From an uncultured bacterium (lineage in GTDB: Bacteria; Patescibacteriota; Minisyncoccia; Moranbacterales; UBA2206): 64,000 nt of DNA. This document shows positions 11,764 through 64,000 of the stretch, one piece after another. The notes under the pieces were generated by a model. It worked only from the letters and a program-made list of their open reading frames with translations. It was not told the origin of the DNA and searched no databases. How positions within the stretch are numbered: position 1 is the first letter of the stretch; each line of letters starts with the position of its first letter. The stretch covers positions 8,786-72,785 of the forward strand of contig CAIKZD010000009.1 in NCBI GenBank assembly GCA_903831805.1, read 5' to 3'. Both the position numbers and the translations under genes were made by a program.

Positions 11764-13014
11764 ATGACTTTTTTTGTTCCAATCAAACTGGCTTTTCGCA
11801 GCGTGCGTTCCAATATGGGTCGGACGATTTTGTCGCTCCTGGGGATTGTCATCGGGGTGGCGAGTGTCATTCTGGTTTTGTCTTTTGGCAGTGGCGTGAA
11901 ACAATTTTTAGTGGACCAAGTTTCTTCTTTCGGTTCGGATATAATTTCGGTGAAAATCAAAGTGCCAAAAGTGAGTAAGACTTCCACGCAGAACGCTAGT
12001 GGCATAATAGGCGGGACGCAAATCACCACCTTGAAATTGGCCGACGCAGAAAAAATTGCCAAGTTGCCCAATGTGGGGGCGTGGTATGCGTCGATTATGA
12101 GTCAGCAAGTAGTGAGTTATGCCAGCAAGAACAAACAGACACTTATCATGGGCGTGACTTCTGGGGTGACCGAAGCGGATCAGAAAACGGTCGTGGAAAC
12201 GGGGACGATGTTCAGTGATGATGATGACAAGAGTCTGCGCCAGGTGGCCGTTTTGGGGAGCGAAGTGAAGACGGATTTTTTTGGGGAGGCGGACGCCGTA
12301 GGCCAAGACATTAAGATCAAAGGGCAGAATTATCACGTGATCGGGGTTTTGAAAAAACGCGGGGCGACCGGGGTTTTCAATTTTGACAATACGATTTATG
12401 TGCCGCTAGAGACTACGCAAAAAAAATTAGCCGGCATTGATTATCTGGAATTTGCCATTTTCAAAATTCAGGATATGAAACAGCTGGACCTGACGATTTT
12501 GAATGCGACGGATGTGGTGCGCACCCAACATAAGATCACGGATCCGAATGATGATGATTTTTCTGTCAGTTCCATCGTGGAGGTGTTGAACATTTTAAAT
12601 AATGTTTTTTTCGCTATTAACATTTTGCTGTTGGCCTTGGTGTCAATCTCTCTGGTGGTCGGCGGTGTGGGAATCATGAATGTGATGTACGTGACCGTGA
12701 CCGAACGGACGTATGAGATTGGGCTCAAAAAATCAGTCGGAGCCCGGGATGGACAGATCCTGGCTCAGTTCCTCTTCGAAGCGGTTTTCATCACGCTCCT
12801 CGGCGGCCTCTTGGGATTTTTGCTCGGCTTTGGTATTTCCAAGTTCGGTGAAATTATCGCCGCCAATTTCGGCTATAGCTTGAGTTTTCCCGTCACCTGG
12901 TGGTCAGTGGCCATCGGCATCGGCTTCTCCGCCGGCACCGGCATCATCTTCGGCTATTTTCCGGCCAGGAAAGCTTCGCAACTAAGTCCGATGGAAGCCT
13001 TGCGGAAGGAATAG
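11764..13014 (+). CDS. ABC transporter permease, MacB-like FtsX family (second paralog)
   Basis: Same architecture as 10512..11759. Confidence 0.75.
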   Translation: MTFFVPIKLAFRSVRSNMGRTILSLLGIVIGVASVILVLSFGSGVKQFLVDQVSSFGSDIISVKIKVPKVSKTSTQNASGIIGGTQITTLKLADAEKIAKLPNVGAWYASIMSQQVVSYASKNKQTLIMGVTSGVTEADQKTVVETGTMFSDDDDKSLRQVAVLGSEVKTDFFGEADAVGQDIKIKGQNYHVIGVLKKRGATGVFNFDNTIYVPLETTQKKLAGIDYLEFAIFKIQDMKQLDLTILNATDVVRTQHKITDPNDDDFSVSSIVEVLNILNNVFFAINILLLALVSISLVVGGVGIMNVMYVTVTERTYEIGLKKSVGARDGQILAQFLFEAVFITLLGGLLGFLLGFGISKFGEIIAANFGYSLSFPVTWWSVAIGIGFSAGTGIIFGYFPARKASQLSPMEALRKE

Positions 13015-13068
13015 GTCCAATAGTATAAAAAAGTTATCCACAGGCAGACAATTTGTCAGAGTAGAATT

Positions 13069-15096
13069 ATGGTGGTAGAATATCATTATGATTATTTAAG
13101 CACAAAAAAAATGATACAAAAAACATTGCAAAAACTAGGTGCTGTTTTGAAAAAAGATGAACGGCTTTTGGCGGATGATGGTAAAATATTAAAAAACCAA
13201 GCTGTAGAATTAGTGAATAAGCTTGATGAGGGCTTAATTGATCTTTTAGCTAGCGACAAAGATCTTAAAAAAATATTTTTCAAGAAAATCGGCGAGATGA
13301 TGGTTTTTGACAAAGATTTGTTCATTGAATTTGTGAGCAATAAGGAATTTTTGCCGGATTCATATACGGCGTTCAAAAACAAAATCGGCTTTGAAATTGG
13401 TGGTCAATATTTGAAATCTCAAAAAGAGGTAGTTTTGGTGTGGCCGTATAAAGATTGCATCTTAGAAGGTGGTCAAACCAAAGAAGATGCCAAGCGCAAG
13501 GAAATTTTTTGGAATGAAACGCTGGCACCGGACGATGTCAATCGTTTGCTGGAGGCGAAAGTGCTCACGAATTGGAAAAGGTATGACAAAGACAATCTCA
13601 AAAACGGACATGTCGTCACGGAAATCAAAGACACCGACAATTTAATCATCAAAGGCAATAATCTTCTAGCGTTGCATTCACTCAAGAAACGTTTTGCCGG
13701 CAAAGTGAAACTGATTTACATTGATCCGCCCTACAACACCGGAAATGATAGCTTTGGCTATAATGATTCTTTCAATCATTCTACGTGGCTGACGTTTATG
13801 AAAAATCGGTTGGAAGTTGCGAGGGAGCTATTGTCAAATGATGGTAGTATATTTATTTCAATTAATCATTTAGAGCTGGGGTATCTGATGGTTTTGATGG
13901 ACGATATTTTTGGAATTGAAAATAAATTGCCAATAATAACATTGAAAGCTGGCACAACAGCAAGTTATAGGGCGATAAATGAGTGTCCTGTGAATGTCTC
14001 GGAGTATGTTTTATCGTATAGAAAATCTTCAAATTATGTTGCTAATAGAATTTATCGAGAAACTAAATATAGCGAAGATTATTCTTATTTTATAAAAAAT
14101 AAAAATGATAATTCCGAAAAATGGATTATCGAAAAAATTGACGATATTATTTATAAAAATAATAAGTGTGATAATTGGAAAGACTTTAAGGATAAATTTG
14201 GACCAACATGGAAAAATGACAGGCTTAAATTAAAAGAAAACTTTGCTTTAGAGAATTCTGATAAAGTAGTTAGTCTAAATACATTGCAAAAACCGTCGAA
14301 AGATGTGCAAATAATTATTGAGAAATCGAAAAACAATAGAAATAAAGTATTTTCTTATAAAAGAAGCGATAAGAATGATATCCATTGTTTTAATGGCAGA
14401 ACATTGGCTTTTTTATCATCTAAGTTTAAAAATATTAATGGAAAAAATGTTCTTGCGGAAATAGTAACAAATTTATGGGATGATATTTCTTTTCTTAGTC
14501 TTGGCTCAGAAGGTGGTGTTGATTTGATTAATGGTAAAAAGCCAGAAGCGTTGATTAAAAGAATTGTTGACATATCAACTTTAAAAAATGATGATATAGT
14601 ATTAGATTTTTTTGCTGGCGCAGGAACAACTGGCGCAGTGGCGCATAAAATGGGACGTAAATACATCCTGGTTGAGCAATTGGATTACATTCACGATCTT
14701 CCAGAATCTAGAATGAAAAAAGTCATCGAAGGCGAACAGGGTGGAATTTCCAAGGCAGTCAATTGGAAAGGTGGCGGGAGTTTTGTGTACACCGAGTTGA
14801 TGCCAGTCAATGAAAAGTTTGTGCGAGAAGTGGAAAATGTGAAAAACAAAAAAGAAGTTTCCGATCTTTGGAAAAGGATTGAGAGGAATGGATTTTTGAG
14901 TTATCGCGTGGACGAACAAAAATTCCACAAAAATGCCAAGGACTTTTCTGATTTGTCACTCGAAGAGCAAAAGAAATTCACTTTGGAATCACTGAACAAA
15001 AATATGCTGTACGTTCCGATTAATGAAATTGAGGACAGTAGTTATAAAGTTAGCAAAGATGATATTAAGTTGAATGAAGAGTTTTATGGGGAATAA
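13069..15096 (+). CDS. mod: Type III restriction-modification Mod subunit (N6-adenine DNA methyltransferase, beta class)
   Basis: IYIDPPYNTG (motif IV) precedes an AT-rich variable target-recognition region, then DFFAGAGTTG (motif I). Followed by Res helicase. Confidence 0.8.
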   Translation: MVVEYHYDYLSTKKMIQKTLQKLGAVLKKDERLLADDGKILKNQAVELVNKLDEGLIDLLASDKDLKKIFFKKIGEMMVFDKDLFIEFVSNKEFLPDSYTAFKNKIGFEIGGQYLKSQKEVVLVWPYKDCILEGGQTKEDAKRKEIFWNETLAPDDVNRLLEAKVLTNWKRYDKDNLKNGHVVTEIKDTDNLIIKGNNLLALHSLKKRFAGKVKLIYIDPPYNTGNDSFGYNDSFNHSTWLTFMKNRLEVARELLSNDGSIFISINHLELGYLMVLMDDIFGIENKLPIITLKAGTTASYRAINECPVNVSEYVLSYRKSSNYVANRIYRETKYSEDYSYFIKNKNDNSEKWIIEKIDDIIYKNNKCDNWKDFKDKFGPTWKNDRLKLKENFALENSDKVVSLNTLQKPSKDVQIIIEKSKNNRNKVFSYKRSDKNDIHCFNGRTLAFLSSKFKNINGKNVLAEIVTNLWDDISFLSLGSEGGVDLINGKKPEALIKRIVDISTLKNDDIVLDFFAGAGTTGAVAHKMGRKYILVEQLDYIHDLPESRMKKVIEGEQGGISKAVNWKGGGSFVYTELMPVNEKFVREVENVKNKKEVSDLWKRIERNGFLSYRVDEQKFHKNAKDFSDLSLEEQKKFTLESLNKNMLYVPINEIEDSSYKVSKDDIKLNEEFYGE

Positions 15097-15268
15097 AAAA
15101 ATTATAAATGTTTCCTCTGGAAATCAATCTGGCGGAGTTACGTCAGGAGAAATTAATAAGGAAACAAATATAAATCTTAATATTTGGAAAGAAAGATCAA
15201 AAGGTGGGTTTTTAGTTCTTGCTCTTGAGTTAATTATTTATATTATTAAAATTTATTTAAACAAATGA
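15074..15268 (+). CDS. small hypothetical protein (paralog of next ORF; shared N(V/I)xS(G/D)NQSGG(V/I)T(S/A)G motif)
   Basis: 64-aa ORF overlapping the mod 3' end. The real start may be the internal Met at 15086. Confidence 0.3.
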   Translation: MKSFMGNKKIINVSSGNQSGGVTSGEINKETNINLNIWKERSKGGFLVLALELIIYIIKIYLNK

Positions 15269-15615
15269 GTGAAGAAAAAATTTTTAATGTAACAAGCGAT
15301 AACCAAAGTGGTGGAATTACAGCAGGTATTGTAAATATTTTTCACAAATTGCGAATAGAGCTGACCGATGAAAATAAAAAACAATTAATAGAAAATTTAA
15401 ATGATAAGTCGGCTACTATTCATGTCTCATTGCAATCTGGAGGTGGAAGTGAAGTAGCTGGCCTGTCTCAGGAGATAATGAGTTTTCTGCTCGAGAGTGG
15501 ATATAAAAATATTTTAGGTGTACATACTATTATGGGATTTGCTCCATTTAAAGGTATGACTATAGAGAGAAAAACAGAGAGTGAGCTTGTTATTTTTATT
15601 GGCTCTTTAATTTAA
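15265..15615 (+). CDS. hypothetical protein
   Basis: 116-aa ORF. Its ATGA start overlaps the previous stop. AT-rich. Confidence 0.4.
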   Translation: MSEEKIFNVTSDNQSGGITAGIVNIFHKLRIELTDENKKQLIENLNDKSATIHVSLQSGGGSEVAGLSQEIMSFLLESGYKNILGVHTIMGFAPFKGMTIERKTESELVIFIGSLI

Positions 15616-15636
15616 AGAATAAAAGATTAAAAATAT

Positions 15637-16116
15637 ATGGCACAAAGATTTATTTATCCCAAAGAATTTATAAAAGACACTCTTATTGAAAAAATAGGTA
15701 AAATTATTCATGTTGATGCTTATCTATCTTTTTTATTAATATGTTCAGGAATTGAATTTTTAGGAAAGTGTATAGACTCAACTGAAAAATGGGAAGAGGG
15801 AAATAGCGGCGAACAATTTAAAACAGCAATTATAAAACTATTTCCAGATGGCTATCATAATTTAGTAAATGATTTATATAAAGACTTGCGATGTGGATTA
15901 GTTCACAGAATTATACCTGGATCAATATCATTAACTCAAAATGGAAATGATAATGATGGCGAAATACCATATAGATTGCATCCATACTTGAAAGATAATA
16001 AAAAAATTCTTGTTATCGAATATTTTTACTTTGATTTTGTGGAGGCTTGTAAAAAAGTTTTAGCTATGAATTTTAATGAAAATAAAATGACCAAGCCAAT
16101 GTTATCAGTTGGTTAA
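15637..16116 (+). CDS. hypothetical protein, possible HEPN-like (Rx4H: RCGLVHR)
   Basis: 159-aa ORF between mod and res. Confidence 0.4.
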   Translation: MAQRFIYPKEFIKDTLIEKIGKIIHVDAYLSFLLICSGIEFLGKCIDSTEKWEEGNSGEQFKTAIIKLFPDGYHNLVNDLYKDLRCGLVHRIIPGSISLTQNGNDNDGEIPYRLHPYLKDNKKILVIEYFYFDFVEACKKVLAMNFNENKMTKPMLSVG

Positions 16117-16121
16117 TATTT

Positions 16122-18788
16122 ATGCTTCACGAAGAATTTAACAGTACTAGGGATGTTGTTGAGAAGGACTATTTTGAGAAAAGAGTCCCTTCTTTTATCA
16201 TGGAAAATTTGACGGAACGGGCGGAGTTGCGTGAATATCAAAAAGAAGCCATTGGAAGATTTGCGTACTATCTCACAAAATATCCCAAAAAGAAAAAGCC
16301 GACGCATCTGCTTTTCAATATGGCCACTGGCTCCGGCAAAACTTTGATTATGGCGGCTGATATTTTGTATCTTTATGAAAAAGGCTATCGTAATTTCATT
16401 TTCTTCGTCAATAGTTCCAATATCATTGAAAAAACCAAAGAAAACTTTCTGAATCCATATTCCAATAAATATCTTTTTGCGAAAAATTTGAAATTCGGCG
16501 ACAAGGCTGTGAAGATCGCGCCGGTGGAAAATTTTGAAGCAGGGAATCTCGAAGATATAAACATTCTTTTTACCACGATTCAGGGATTGCATGTGCGACT
16601 CGGTAATCCCAAAGAAAATGCCATCACCTATGAAGATTTTGCGGAAAAGAAAATCGTGCTTTTGTCCGACGAGGCGCATCACATCAACACACTCACCAAA
16701 CTCAAAAAAAACGGACAGAAATCTCTGCTTGACGACGGAATTGGAAAGATCGAAGGTTTGAAAAAAGAAGAAGAAACGGAATTGCGTTCTTGGGAGGGAA
16801 CGGTGATGCGTATTTTGAATGCTAATAAGAATAATGTCTTGTTAGAATTTACTGCCACAATTGATTTGAAAAATCCGGGCATTGCCGAAAAATATGAGGA
16901 CAAGATAATTTTTGAATATAATTTGAAGCAATATCGCTTGGACGGATTTTCCAAAGAAATTGAAATTTTGGAAGCGGATCTATCTCGGATGAACCGCGCG
17001 CTGGTGGCGATCATTTTGTCACAGTATCGGATGAAGGTGGCGCAGAAACATAGAATTTTTTTGAAGCCCGTGGTGATGTTCAAGGCTAATCGCGTTAGTG
17101 TGCCCAAGAAAGCCAACGCAGAAGCGGTTGTCTCCAGTGAATTCAAAGAAGAATTCTTAGAGAAAGTGAAGAATTTGAAAGGCGACGACCTGAAACAATT
17201 GGGAAAGATTAAAAACGAAACTTTGCGGCGTGCTTTTGAGTTTTTCAAAGATAATGGAATCTCCTTGGGATCTTTAGCAAAAGAACTTCAAAATGATTTT
17301 ACAGAAGAAAAATGCATTTCCATTGATTCAAAAGATCAAAGCGAAAAAAATCAAATACTGGTTAATTCTTTGGAAGATCCTAGCAACGAAGTGCGCGCGG
17401 TTTTCGCGGTAGATGCTCTCAATGAAGGTTGGGATGTCTTAAATCTGTTTGATATCGTGCGGTTGTATAATTCAAGAGAACACAGACCCGGCAGTTATAC
17501 GATGGCGGAAGCGCAACTTATTGGCCGAGGCGCGCGATATTACCCATTTTCTATTAACGGGAATGGTGACAGATATTGCAGAAAATTTGATGAGGATGTG
17601 GAAAGCGAACTGCGCATTATTGAACAGCTCTATTATCACAGTGCTCAATATTCCGGTTATATTTCCGATATCACCAATGCTCTCATTCAAACAGGTATAA
17701 TGCCGGAGAAAAAAGTTGAGAGAGAAGTGAAAGTCAAAGACAGCTTCAAAAACACCGCCATGTGGAAAAATGGAATAATTTTTCTCAATGCACAAATTCC
17801 GGATGATCGTAGTGACGCAAAAAATTTGAAATCGGTAAATATCCCGCTCGAATACGAATATAATTTTGTAACAGGGCTTATCGAAGAACACGAAGTGCTT
17901 AGTGATAGACTGCAAATGAAAACGCAACCGGGGAATGTAGACATGAGAAAAATAAAACTCTTGAGTTTGAGTCGCAGTGTGGTTTGTGAAGCTATAAACC
18001 GTATTGATTTTTATAATTTCAAAAATATCAATCAATATTTTCCGCCGGCTGACTCAGCGGAGAAGTTTATTGATGAATATTTAAAGGATGTATCTGTGAA
18101 AGTTTCTGGTCCTAGAGATTTTCTAGATAATTTACAACAAGATGAAAAACTTGATATTGCGGTGAATGTTTTGGAACAAATATCTGTGAGCGCGCAAAAT
18201 ACAAAAAAGGAAAACATGGGATCTGTTGAATTTGGAGCGCACAAAATTTCAGATATTTTCAAAGACAAAATTTTGCAGATTGCCAGCGACAGCCCAAGAG
18301 CCAAGGAGATGGAGGAGATTGATTTGTCCGCGCGGAGCTGGTTCGCGCAAAATGAAATTTGGGGAACTGGAGAAGAAGAGTCTTTTTTGAAATTTTTTGA
18401 TGAGACAGCAGGAGACCTCAAGAAAAAATATGATCAAGTGGCGGTGATGCGAAATGAAAAACATTTCAAAATTTTCAACTTTGACGATGGCCAGCCATTT
18501 GAGCCGGACTTTGTTCTGCTTCTCAAGGAAAAGAAAACAAAAAAAGAATTACTCTGGCAAGTTTTCATTGAGCCAAAGGGCGATCAATTTTTGGATGAAG
18601 ATGGCGGATTTCAAAAAGGCAAGGAAGGCTGGAAAGAGAAATTTCTGTTGCAGATTGCCGATAAGTATAAATTGGATTTGGATAAATTCAAAATTGAAAA
18701 CAAAGATTTTAAATTGATTGGATTGCCTTTCTATAATGAAGGATTGAAAGAGAGATTCGAGGAAAGTTTTCATGAAATTGTTAAATAG
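16122..18788 (+). CDS. res: Type III restriction enzyme Res subunit (SF2 helicase-nuclease)
   Basis: 888 aa. Walker A ATGSGKT, DEAH box LLSDEAHH. Adjacent to Mod. Confidence 0.8.
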   Translation: MLHEEFNSTRDVVEKDYFEKRVPSFIMENLTERAELREYQKEAIGRFAYYLTKYPKKKKPTHLLFNMATGSGKTLIMAADILYLYEKGYRNFIFFVNSSNIIEKTKENFLNPYSNKYLFAKNLKFGDKAVKIAPVENFEAGNLEDINILFTTIQGLHVRLGNPKENAITYEDFAEKKIVLLSDEAHHINTLTKLKKNGQKSLLDDGIGKIEGLKKEEETELRSWEGTVMRILNANKNNVLLEFTATIDLKNPGIAEKYEDKIIFEYNLKQYRLDGFSKEIEILEADLSRMNRALVAIILSQYRMKVAQKHRIFLKPVVMFKANRVSVPKKANAEAVVSSEFKEEFLEKVKNLKGDDLKQLGKIKNETLRRAFEFFKDNGISLGSLAKELQNDFTEEKCISIDSKDQSEKNQILVNSLEDPSNEVRAVFAVDALNEGWDVLNLFDIVRLYNSREHRPGSYTMAEAQLIGRGARYYPFSINGNGDRYCRKFDEDVESELRIIEQLYYHSAQYSGYISDITNALIQTGIMPEKKVEREVKVKDSFKNTAMWKNGIIFLNAQIPDDRSDAKNLKSVNIPLEYEYNFVTGLIEEHEVLSDRLQMKTQPGNVDMRKIKLLSLSRSVVCEAINRIDFYNFKNINQYFPPADSAEKFIDEYLKDVSVKVSGPRDFLDNLQQDEKLDIAVNVLEQISVSAQNTKKENMGSVEFGAHKISDIFKDKILQIASDSPRAKEMEEIDLSARSWFAQNEIWGTGEEESFLKFFDETAGDLKKKYDQVAVMRNEKHFKIFNFDDGQPFEPDFVLLLKEKKTKKELLWQVFIEPKGDQFLDEDGGFQKGKEGWKEKFLLQIADKYKLDLDKFKIENKDFKLIGLPFYNEGLKERFEESFHEIVK

Positions 18789-18805: not shown

Positions 18806-18964
18806 ATGCCATTCGTAAAATTCCAACACAAAAGCCATGGCGTGATGACAACTACGCCGGAAAATTGGATTCAGTATGAACTTTTTGACGCGACGGATGA
18901 AAACGGCGATAGCATGCCGGTTTATAAGAGTGATTGCGAAAGTCCGAAATATATTGAGGAATAA
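18806..18964 (+). CDS. small acidic hypothetical protein (52 aa)
   Basis: ATG 18806 to TAA 18964, below the ORF-track length cutoff. Immediately followed by a 26-bp perfect palindrome. Confidence 0.25.
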   Translation: MPFVKFQHKSHGVMTTTPENWIQYELFDATDENGDSMPVYKSDCESPKYIEE

Positions 18965-18990
18965 TTTGCTACGTAGCATGCTACGTAGCA
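18965..18990. repeat. 26-bp perfect palindrome (TGCTACGTAGCA x2)
   Basis: ttgctacgtagcatgctacgtagcaa is self-complementary. Confidence 0.8.
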
Positions 18991-19039
18991 ATGTAAATGC
19001 ATCGGTTGATTTTTAACGTGTTTCTTGTTAAGCTGTTCT

Positions 19040-28055: not shown

Positions 28056-28128
28056 GCCACCTTAGCTCAGTTGGCAGAGCGACGCACTCGTAACGCGTAG
28101 GTCGTCGGTTCGATTCCGACAGGTGGCT
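28056..28128 (+). tRNA. tRNA-Thr (anticodon CGT)
   Basis: Cloverleaf by eye: acceptor gccacct/aggtggc, D arm gctc-agttggc-gagc, anticodon loop cuCGUaa, T arm gtcgg-ttcgatt-ccgac. CCA not encoded. Confidence 0.7.
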
Positions 28129-28161
28129 CATTTTTAAAAAATAAAAATTAACTTAAGCTCT

Positions 28162-35553: not shown

Positions 35554-35625
35554 TGGAGCGTAGCCAAGTGGTAAGGCAACGGGTTCTGATCCCGTCATGC
35601 GTAGGTCCGAATCCTACCGCTCCAA
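35554..35625 (+). tRNA. tRNA-Gln (anticodon CTG)
   Basis: U1:A72 acceptor (tggagcg/cgctcca), D arm gcc-aagtggtaa-ggc, anticodon stem acggg/cccgt with loop uuCUGau, T arm gtagg-tccgaat-cctac. Confidence 0.7.
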
Positions 35626-35633
35626 CAACGACC

Positions 35634-44506: not shown

Positions 44507-44579
44507 GCGCCTATAGCTCAGTTGGTAGAGCAGTTGCCTTTTAAGCAAACGGTCCCTGGTTCGAGTCCAGGTGGGCGCA
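44507..44579 (+). tRNA. tRNA-Lys (anticodon TTT)
   Basis: Cloverleaf: acceptor gcgccta/tgggcgc, D arm gctc-agttggta-gagc, anticodon loop cuUUUaa, T arm cctgg-ttcgagt-ccagg. Confidence 0.75.
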
Positions 44580-44663
44580 CAAATAAAATTTTGAATTTTT
44601 AAAACAGTCTGGAGGCTGTTTTTTGTTTCAATTTGGCTTTTGTTTTACAATCAATTTAACTAG

Positions 44664-63070: not shown

Positions 63071-63456
63071 GGGACATACGAGTTACATTTAATCTTTAAT
63101 TCCAAAAAAGGCAATTAAATAAACTCTCGAAAATCTTTTAAAACACTGAATGAAACAAAGATACATCTTTGTGTGTAATTAGTATTGCGCGCGAAGATGT
63201 GTTTTTTTGCTTGCCCCGTGCGAGTTTACGGGGTTCGTTCAAAGAGTATAAAAAGCAAGACCTTTAACAATTGCATAGTTTCTCTAAATCTCCACCTTTT
63301 GATTTAGAGAGACGAAATAATCACAATTTTTTGCGATTAGTCCTCGTCTGGTCTCGCTTCGGCGAGATTGGACAAACAAATAGAGTCTATTTCAAAATTA
63401 AGAAAATTTATTTTCTTTTCAACTAATATTTGGTGGAGTTAAATCCACTGAATCAT

Positions 63457-64000
<544 letters not shown>

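Follow-up and report, generated by a model that had tools for sequence, protein, structure and literature searches.

A HEPN-like putative RNase effector gene and an independent two-gene module within a Type III restriction-modification operon

Within a 64,000-nt stretch of DNA (the window; contig CAIKZD010000009.1 of assembly GCA_903831805.1), we analyzed positions 13069–18788, where three small open reading frames (ORF1, ORF2, and ORF3) lie between mod and res, the two genes of a restriction-modification (R-M) system of Type III, all five on the + strand. Judged by how their homologs are distributed, the three small ORFs are two independent modules. ORF3 belongs to a large family whose conserved motifs and predicted topology resemble those of HEPN proteins and whose place between mod and res recurs in divergent Type III systems; ORF1 and ORF2 form a conserved pair whose usual home is beside a LexA-like gene. 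We lean toward the explanation that the region is a horizontally acquired Type III R-M operon, low in guanine plus cytosine (GC), of a Moranbacteria-like bacterium of the candidate phyla radiation (CPR), in which ORF3 would be a latent HEPN ribonuclease (RNase) effector and ORF1+ORF2 independent cargo.

The original prediction, a reading of the letters alone, described a 1-kb, three-ORF interval between mod and res, and this description is accurate in all its coordinates. The distance from the mod stop codon to the res start codon is 1,025 bp, and mod (13069–15096), ORF1 (15074–15268), ORF2 (15265–15615), ORF3 (15637–16116), and res (16122–18788) all stand on the + strand where they had been placed, the middle three closely packed. 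ORF1 overlaps the mod stop, the ORF1 stop and the ORF2 ATG overlap as ATGA, and 5 nt separate the ORF3 stop from the start of res; the overlaps and gaps along the operon are 11 nt or less, with the 21 nt ahead of ORF3 as the single exception. No forward-strand terminator-like site was found between the mod and res genes, the matches lying on the opposite strand or inside res. Because the gaps and overlaps are short and no such terminator intervenes, the best explanation is that mod–ORF1–ORF2–ORF3–res is one unit, co-transcribed and translationally coupled, which we hold with the same moderate confidence as the explanation as a whole.

The two outer genes encode the subunits of the R-M enzyme. 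The methyltransferase Mod (675 amino acids (aa) as the longest ORF, probably 661 aa from 13111) matches PF12564 (2e-20), PF01555 (2.5e-35), and the PADLOC model MTase_III (1.4e-187). Its central region is 20–27% identical to that of Mod in the closest relative, L006 (L001–L112 are our labels for the fetched comparison loci), a low identity that is consistent with a variable target-recognition region. The restriction subunit Res (888 aa) matches ResIII (3.6e-31) and PADLOC REase_III (9.3e-121), and the domains HI_1054_N and HI_1054 are on record for a protein identical to it. ORF1, ORF2, and ORF3 have no match in Pfam, NCBIfam, PADLOC, or PHROGs (for ORF1 and ORF2 at E ≤ 0.01). All three are real genes under purifying selection, because homologs exist and the ratios of nonsynonymous to synonymous substitution rates (dN/dS) are low: 0.056–0.15 for ORF3, 0.14–0.19 for ORF2, and 0.15–0.56 for ORF1, beside 0.079 for res and 0.144 for mod. 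The original prediction had allowed for ORFs devoid of homologs, conserved synteny, and coding signature; homologs and low dN/dS are what we find, together with the conserved synteny described below.

ORF3 (159 aa) has 32 close homologs, and a profile search retrieves 736 clusters (50% identity) at E ≤ 1e-3 and 489 at E ≤ 1e-10, in a family centered on CPR bacteria and Bacteroidota. HEPN proteins are described as having an up-down core of four helices that takes inserts between helices 2 and 3, a polar residue that follows the conserved Arg, and an acidic helix-2 residue, usually within Ex3[KR] (PMC3710099). Three features of ORF3 can be set against this description. First, R85, G87, and H90 of its Rx4H motif (R85-C-G-L-V-H90) are invariant in 29 homologs, and RxGxxH is kept in 131 of 146 family representatives. 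Second, E40-F-L-G-K44, in the helix of residues 28–46, fits Ex3[KR]; E40 is invariant in the alignment of the 29 homologs (A1) and at least 90% conserved in a wide alignment (A3). Third, the AlphaFold2 (AF2) model (pLDDT 87.3, pTM 0.86) has helices at residues 8–23, 28–46, 71–89, and 127–143, an extra helix at 57–68 as an insert between helices 2 and 3, and R85–H90 at the end of helix 71–89, the end of helix 3 being where the HEPN description locates this motif (PMC3710099). The predicted helix topology thus fits the HEPN core with a helix 2–3 insert. Together with R[CN]GxxH, the hallmarks of the family are a helix-2 motif GIEFLGKC, an EYFYxDF block, and a beta-rich insert. The original prediction had singled out RCGLVHR as compatible with a HEPN protein, and the invariance of this motif, the helix-2 Ex3K, and the matching predicted topology bear it out; from these motifs and this topology, membership of the ORF3 family in the HEPN superfamily appears quite likely.

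Profile and fold searches place the family outside the curated HEPN families. Pfam searches with the 29 and then with 138 relatives, along with two consensus sequences, gave scattered weak matches only, among them single relatives matching HEPN_Cthe2314 (1.3e-3) and pEK499_p136 (0.038) in the scan of 138. In PADLOC, four of the eight matches obtained with the 138 relatives were to Csm6/Csx1 models (Csm6 at best 6.9e-5, with ~0.01 such matches expected over 138 queries; Csx1/CARF_HEPN at 4.8e-3). Profile searches of the PDB with A1, A3, and the ORF2 alignment (A2) returned nothing significant. A Foldseek search of the PDB with the ORF3 model placed HepT, AbiV, and HepS within the top eight at E ≥ 0.57, the HepT matches being 7bxo_D, 6m6u_H, and 6m6w_B with template-modeling (TM) scores of 0.38–0.46. 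The thematically consistent matches are thus to HEPN proteins only, and each one is weak.

Some HEPN-fold proteins are non-catalytic binding domains (PMC3710099), and ORF3 could similarly be a non-catalytic accessory or regulator of the R-M system, whether an assembly factor, a timer of restriction after transfer, or a DNA/RNA-binding adaptor. Its translational coupling to res would suit such a role, as would the finding of no significant match to characterized nucleases; the marginal match of the wide profile to a PRD-type antiterminator (3rio, E = 0.029) points in the same direction, although we treated it as chance. We nevertheless find this alternative quite improbable. The HEPN active-site residues E40, R85, and H90 are near-invariant over 138 diverse relatives, whereas non-catalytic HEPN domains typically lose Rx4-6H (PMC3710099), and the family is also found far from R-M genes.

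The genomic position of ORF3 is conserved as well. The order mod–ORF3–res is found in L001–L003/L015, L029, L006, and L059 and probably in L035, and in all of these other than L006 the ORF3 homolog stands between mod and res, without ORF1 or ORF2, at gaps of a few nucleotides from its neighbors. Mod and Res of L001 and L029 are 20–29% identical to those of the window, and ORF3 is 49–53% identical; in L006, the corresponding values are 88% for ORF3, 75% for Res, and 60% for Mod, and the dN/dS of ORF3 against its L006 counterpart (0.056) is below that of res (0.079). Because the order is kept where Mod and Res are only 20–29% identical, mod–ORF3–res is, on these comparisons, a standing architecture for ORF3 and not a recent insertion. 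Related positions occur in other R-M types. L042:3232–9890 is a complete Type I operon, hsdM–hsdS–ORF3 homolog–hsdR, with a homolog ~39% identical to ORF3, and in L064 a fused C5/N6 methylase is followed by a GmrSD_N/HNH nuclease and then by an ORF3 homolog. Among 293 neighbors of 81 distinct ORF3 loci, the sole recurrent families were Type III mod (9 loci) and res (7 loci). R-M genes accounted for 19 of 294 genes within three positions of an ORF3 homolog versus 2 of 249 farther away (odds ratio 8.5, p = 3.5e-4), an enrichment that must be read with the caveat that the search seeds were themselves taken from neighbors. The family is thus significantly associated with R-M genes, as expected from the nesting of HEPN genes in R-M operons that the original prediction had invoked and that has been published (PMC3710099).

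The same survey also lends itself to another explanation, that ORF3, as a HEPN-like toxin or a standalone gene for abortive infection, resides in defense islands and R-M operons as permissive, co-selected sites and acts alone, with no regulation by Mod and Res. In about 85% of the 81 loci, no R-M gene is detectable up to three genes away, and the neighbors are highly diverse, including integrases, resolvases, a transposase, and housekeeping genes. The homolog in L031 sits downstream of a contiguous mod–res pair, not inside it, and that in L004 has NYN and further small genes around it but no R-M system. Such freedom of placement is difficult to reconcile, however, with a mod–ORF3–res order that persists, the genes only a few nucleotides apart, in Type III systems that are very divergent and with the similar position in a Type I operon. 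Moreover, no gene of the operon is more strongly conserved than ORF3 in the comparison with L006 (88% versus 60–75%), which fits co-function better than hitch-hiking. We consider a purely standalone ORF3 unlikely.

Several of these loci show variations on the arrangement. In L031, an AAA_15/AAA_21 ATPase gene and the ORF3 homolog follow the contiguous pair, and in L081 the homolog is followed by a 933-aa AAA_21 ATPase; in these two loci only (L031:5522–7525 and L081:6986–10359), ORF3 homologs adjoin genes for AbiEii/OLD/Gabija-like ATPases, which would be the ATPase+HEPN architecture of PrrC and RloC in split form. In L022:1637–2745, a distant 200-aa paralog (with DIEYLGG and FRNGLAHEY; hhalign 96.5%, E = 9e-10) lies directly upstream of a 72%-identical ORF3 homolog and downstream of a res fragment, and these tandem paralogs may form a heterodimeric pair. 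In L002:5520–9828 and L003:1215–5523, mod and res each fall into two ORFs (of 65+451 aa and of 583+173 aa), and the ORF3 homolog (P0015) is intact and identical to that of the near-identical L001:6463–10770; the splits could be frameshift inactivation or phase variation with ORF3 retained. In L004:6972–9041, the homolog stands between an NYN-domain gene and a gene for a 136-aa helical protein with RCNFVAH (Rx5H), possibly a second HEPN-like gene; NYN genes adjoin ORF3 homologs in both L004 and L006. Upstream of and overlapping mod, L001:5800–6475 encodes a 58-aa protein, which by eye we take to be AbrB/SpoVT-like, and a 165-aa protein that has a transmembrane helix at its C terminus. In these Type III operons of CPR bacteria, small membrane proteins are a recurring feature, as the window ORF1, the 165-aa protein of L001, and a 92-aa protein of L006 with two transmembrane helices. 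No ORF3 homolog was found in plasmid and phage collections, and a scan of viral contigs for ORF3 gave one fragment, outside any ORF (L112).

In L006, the mod–res interval holds that unrelated 92-aa protein just before ORF3, and BRO-like and NYN-domain genes after it. This BRO-like (96 aa) and NYN-domain (193 aa) pair (L006:8486–9601) is inserted exactly at the start of res. The first nucleotides of res are directly duplicated over 23 nt (ATGCTTCACGAAGAATTTAACAG) on either side of the pair, so that the BRO-like ORF opens with the first eight codons of res (MLHEEFNS). The duplication looks like the footprint of a cassette-insertion mechanism. With such varied occupants across related intervals, the mod–res interval of this lineage is a cargo slot of which ORF3 is the most constant occupant. 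The original prediction had asked whether related mod–res pairs lack the insert: ORF1 and ORF2 are absent from them and the L031 pair is contiguous, but in the others ORF3 is present between mod and res.

The original prediction had treated ORF1–ORF3 as a single three-gene cassette that splits a normally contiguous operon, and a corresponding alternative is that they are one toxin/antitoxin or abortive-infection (Abi) cassette inserted between mod and res, with ORF1 or ORF2 neutralizing ORF3 or sensing for it. Their layout would suggest as much, for in the window, as in identical copies of this locus, the three genes lie side by side in one orientation with translational coupling, and L006 likewise has a gene for a small membrane protein just upstream of ORF3. 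The distributions are separate, however. No ORF2 homolog was found in any fetched ORF3 locus and no ORF3 homolog in the ORF2 loci checked (L008–L012), and among the 81 ORF3 loci and ~9 ORF2 loci fetched, ORF1+ORF2 and ORF3 co-occur in this lineage only. ORF3 homologs stand between mod and res without ORF1 or ORF2, and the pair has its own conserved home beside the LexA-like gene. No MNT or other known antitoxin signature was found, and no evidence for ORF1+ORF2 as an antitoxin or sensor of ORF3. The separate distributions largely refute a single three-gene cassette, and the retention of mod–ORF3–res across divergent Type III systems speaks against the split of a contiguous operon; because of the separate distributions, we regard ORF3 and ORF1+ORF2 as two independent modules, and a joint toxin/antitoxin or Abi function for the three genes as very improbable.

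ORF1 is predicted to be a small membrane protein with a tail anchor. As called it has 64 aa, but judging from homologs it probably has 60, with a start at 15086 instead of 15074. It carries KIINVSSxNQSGGxTSG at the N terminus, IWKxR in the center, and a hydrophobic helix at the C terminus; its maximum Kyte–Doolittle hydropathy over 17 residues is 2.37, at residues 46–62. Its homologs, 56–60 aa long and ahead of ORF2 homologs in six loci (L010–L012 and L108–L110), share KIINVSSxKQSGGxTSG, IWKxRxEGFF, and the hydrophobic helix with a conserved Glu. ORF2 (116 aa) is a predicted soluble protein with 26 homologs, which open with a motif near-identical to that of ORF1, predicted to be disordered, and continue into a small alpha/beta domain. 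Its AF2 model has a pLDDT of 72.5, with residues 1–27 below 50, and neither a Foldseek fold search nor a PDB profile search with ORF2 gave anything significant. One database protein is an ORF1–ORF2 fusion. Over their N termini, ORF1 and ORF2 are identical at 16 of 39 positions (E = 4e-8), and they have no similarity beyond. Because the similarity is confined to the N terminus, the two share a common motif and are not whole-length paralogs, so that of the diverged tandem paralogs originally proposed, the shared motif stands and the paralogy of the full proteins does not.

In L010/L011, L012, L108/L109, and L110, a Peptidase_S24 (LexA-like) gene directly precedes the pair and genes for HU and RNase Y follow it, and different R-M genes are inserted around the pair: a Type II methyltransferase and a MutH-like gene in L012, and hsdM and hsdS in L108. 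Sequence comparison thus presents ORF1+ORF2 as an independent conserved module that shares hot spots with R-M genes. In L108:6388–9215, hsdM and hsdS come directly after the pair and no hsdR was seen nearby; they may be an orphan Type I methylase, or the R subunit may be encoded elsewhere. The toxin–antitoxin or Abi character first proposed for ORF1 and ORF2 finds no support, as no such signature appears in Pfam, PADLOC, NCBIfam, or PHROGs and the usual home of the pair is beside the LexA-like gene. The pair is possibly stress- or SOS-linked, and our best guess is a membrane module linked to stress or DNA damage, not an antitoxin of ORF3. The sole viral occurrence of the ORF1/ORF2 motif in scans of viral contigs (NQSGGITA) is in L111:67–549, which encodes a 160-aa protein with multiple transmembrane helices, an internal VSVTSYNQSGGITA motif, and an ORF2-like continuation; the adjoining gene encodes a 632-aa protein that we take, by eye, to be tail-fiber-like. 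We also considered that NQSGG might be a double-glycine bacteriocin leader and rejected this reading: the leader consensus did not fit the motif, and no peptidase/ABC exporter gene was noticed beside the pair in the fetched loci.

Several steps can be proposed for how the R-M operon and its occupants might work. From its motifs, ORF3 would be a metal-independent RNase that dimerizes into a composite R/H active site. By analogy with known systems, it would be held latent by association or stoichiometry with the Mod/Res complex and freed once a phage blocks or overwhelms the R-M enzyme. Freed ORF3 would then shut down translation, providing a second line of defense, as PrrC does in the Type Ic prr operon. 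ORF1+ORF2 were probably acquired as cargo in a mod–res interval that takes varied cargo in related genomes. For ORF3, co-function with the R-M enzyme is suggested by the translational coupling to res, by a conservation stronger than that of Mod and Res, and by the comparable place of a homolog in a Type I operon.

A number of observations weigh against this explanation. First, parts of ORF3 depart from the HEPN norm: a beta-rich insert of ~30 residues (97–126) between helices 3 and 4 is atypical, the AF2 model is least confident at residues 89–91, and the residue after the conserved Arg, usually N, D, or H, is Cys in ORF3, with Cys in 84 and Asn in 42 of 138 relatives. Second, ORF3 has no significant match to a solved HEPN structure, the best Foldseek match having E = 0.57 and a TM score of ~0.4, and neither ORF3 nor the family consensus sequences match a curated HEPN profile (zero matches in Pfam and none in PADLOC). 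Third, R-M genes are near only ~14–16% of the loci of the family, which is thus not obligatorily R-M-linked. Fourth, the window encodes no toxin-restraining partner, whether MNT or an ATPase domain. Finally, the role that we have given to ORF1+ORF2 is a guess.

The operon stands out from its surroundings in base composition. GC is 0.256 in ORF1, 0.325 in ORF2, 0.273 in ORF3, 0.338 in mod, and 0.383 in res, versus 0.44–0.49 in the flanks, and the variable middle of mod (0.24) is as low as the three-ORF interval. The interval is thus AT-rich, as first noted, and it shares this with the operon as a whole, which forms a low-GC island. No direct repeats or mobile-element ends were found flanking this island, and no phase-variation repeats in mod; the window contains neither a LexA gene nor further copies of ORF1–ORF3. 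Where the island starts, shortly 3′ of an FtsX permease gene that ends at 13014, lies a promoter-like site on the + strand (13053–13081; TTGTCA, 17 nt, and TAGAAT with an upstream TG), identified by consensus match only. This site agrees with the mod start at 13111 suggested by a 661-aa cluster representative, and the start codon at 13069 is probably misplaced. Directly 3′ of res, a 52-aa ORF (18806–18964, + strand) is an annotated gene in identical copies of the locus and, among all fetched loci, occurs in these only; its membership in the system is uncertain. It is followed by a perfect 26-nt palindrome (TTGCTACGTAGCATGCTACGTAGCAA; 18966–18991), a terminator-like hairpin that probably marks the end of the operon. 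DnaK encoded in the window shares 88–93% identity with DnaK of MAGs named Parcubacteria or Candidatus Moranbacteria, which places the host among CPR/Patescibacteria. Elsewhere in the window, every large ORF is on the + strand, tRNA genes are found at 28056–28129 (Thr-CGT), 35554–35626 (Gln-CTG), and 44507–44580 (Lys-TTT), and positions 63456–64000 hold the 5′ part of a bacterial 16S rRNA gene that continues past the window end.

That effectors of the HEPN type can be nested in R-M operons has been known, as a principle, since 2013. New here are a family that is large and unannotated, the fixed place it has between mod and res in Type III systems of CPR bacteria, and its presence in this operon together with a second, uncharacterized module. 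The genomes of CPR bacteria (Patescibacteria) are tiny, and to our knowledge few of their defenses beyond R-M have been characterized. If our explanation is correct, an RNase-like effector is wired into R-M operons of these bacteria as well, giving them layered, abortive-infection-style immunity. The ORF3 family, a large one with no model in Pfam, NCBIfam, PADLOC, or PHROGs and with three candidate catalytic residues, would then add a new clade to the theme of HEPN genes in R-M operons and serve as a new annotation marker of composite R-M systems. The ORF1+ORF2 pair, with its shared disordered motif, one membrane-anchored member, and a LexA-like gene as neighbor, may point to a stress module. 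A bolder view, which we put forward as a speculation with rather little chance of being right, is that the ORF3 family is an unrecognized, widespread HEPN clade (>700 clusters) that provides Type I, II/IV, and III systems with a portable RNase fail-safe placed just upstream of the nuclease/helicase subunit, and that it is joined here by a LexA-associated sensing/executing pair into a five-gene composite immune operon, the first abortive-infection-like layer described for CPR bacteria.

Canonical Type III R-M systems (EcoP15I and the HI_1054–1056 type) have the same Mod domains (PF12564 and PF01555), the same Res domains (ResIII and the HI_1054 type), and the same order, mod then res; their mod and res are normally adjacent, whereas the window and several CPR relatives have one to four genes between them. 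HepT (DUF86) of the HepT–MntA system is similar to ORF3 in size and is among its top structural matches, and HepT GLRNIAVHDY resembles LRNGLVHS[LF] of ORF3 relatives. In contrast, the Tyr of the HepT RX4HXY motif is not conserved in ORF3, and no gene for an MNT nucleotidyltransferase antitoxin lies beside ORF3; none was seen among the fetched ORF3 relatives, and neither ORF1 nor ORF2 has a nucleotidyltransferase match. Links to R-M operons have been described for at least 16 HEPN clades, and it is a published generalization that HEPN genes nested in such operons are second-line effectors (PMC3710099). Solo HEPN families reported from R-M operons (AbiU2, ApeA/BMEI1217, AbiJ solos, and pEK499_p136-like proteins; PMC3710099) are, like ORF3, small or single-domain proteins with Rx4-6H, encoded inside R-M loci or beside them and predicted to be second-line RNases, but the ORF3 family matches none of their Pfam models significantly.

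The parallel on which the proposed mechanism is modeled is PrrC of the EcoprrI system of E. coli (prrABCD), a latent anticodon nuclease that is encoded within the Type Ic operon prrABD and that the R-M complex sequesters (PMC3874165). There are clear differences: the host system of ORF3 is Type III and not Type Ic, no sequence similarity between the two proteins was detected, and PrrC is much larger, carrying at its N terminus a regulatory ATPase domain of the ABC type, whereas ORF3 consists of one domain of 159 aa and has no ATPase match. Because ORF3 has no PrrC-type ATPase domain, complex formation or a further partner would have to provide its control. Nevertheless, both are effector genes, putatively so for ORF3, inside an R-M operon and upstream of the restriction/helicase subunit, and the ORF3 relative between hsdS and hsdR in L042 recalls prrC within prrABD. 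The catalytic domain of PrrC carries an Rx4-6H HEPN motif, as ORF3 carries Rx4H, and silencing of the nuclease by the R-M enzyme, with release when a phage defeats restriction, is the mode of control that we propose for ORF3 by analogy (PMC3874165; PMC3710099).

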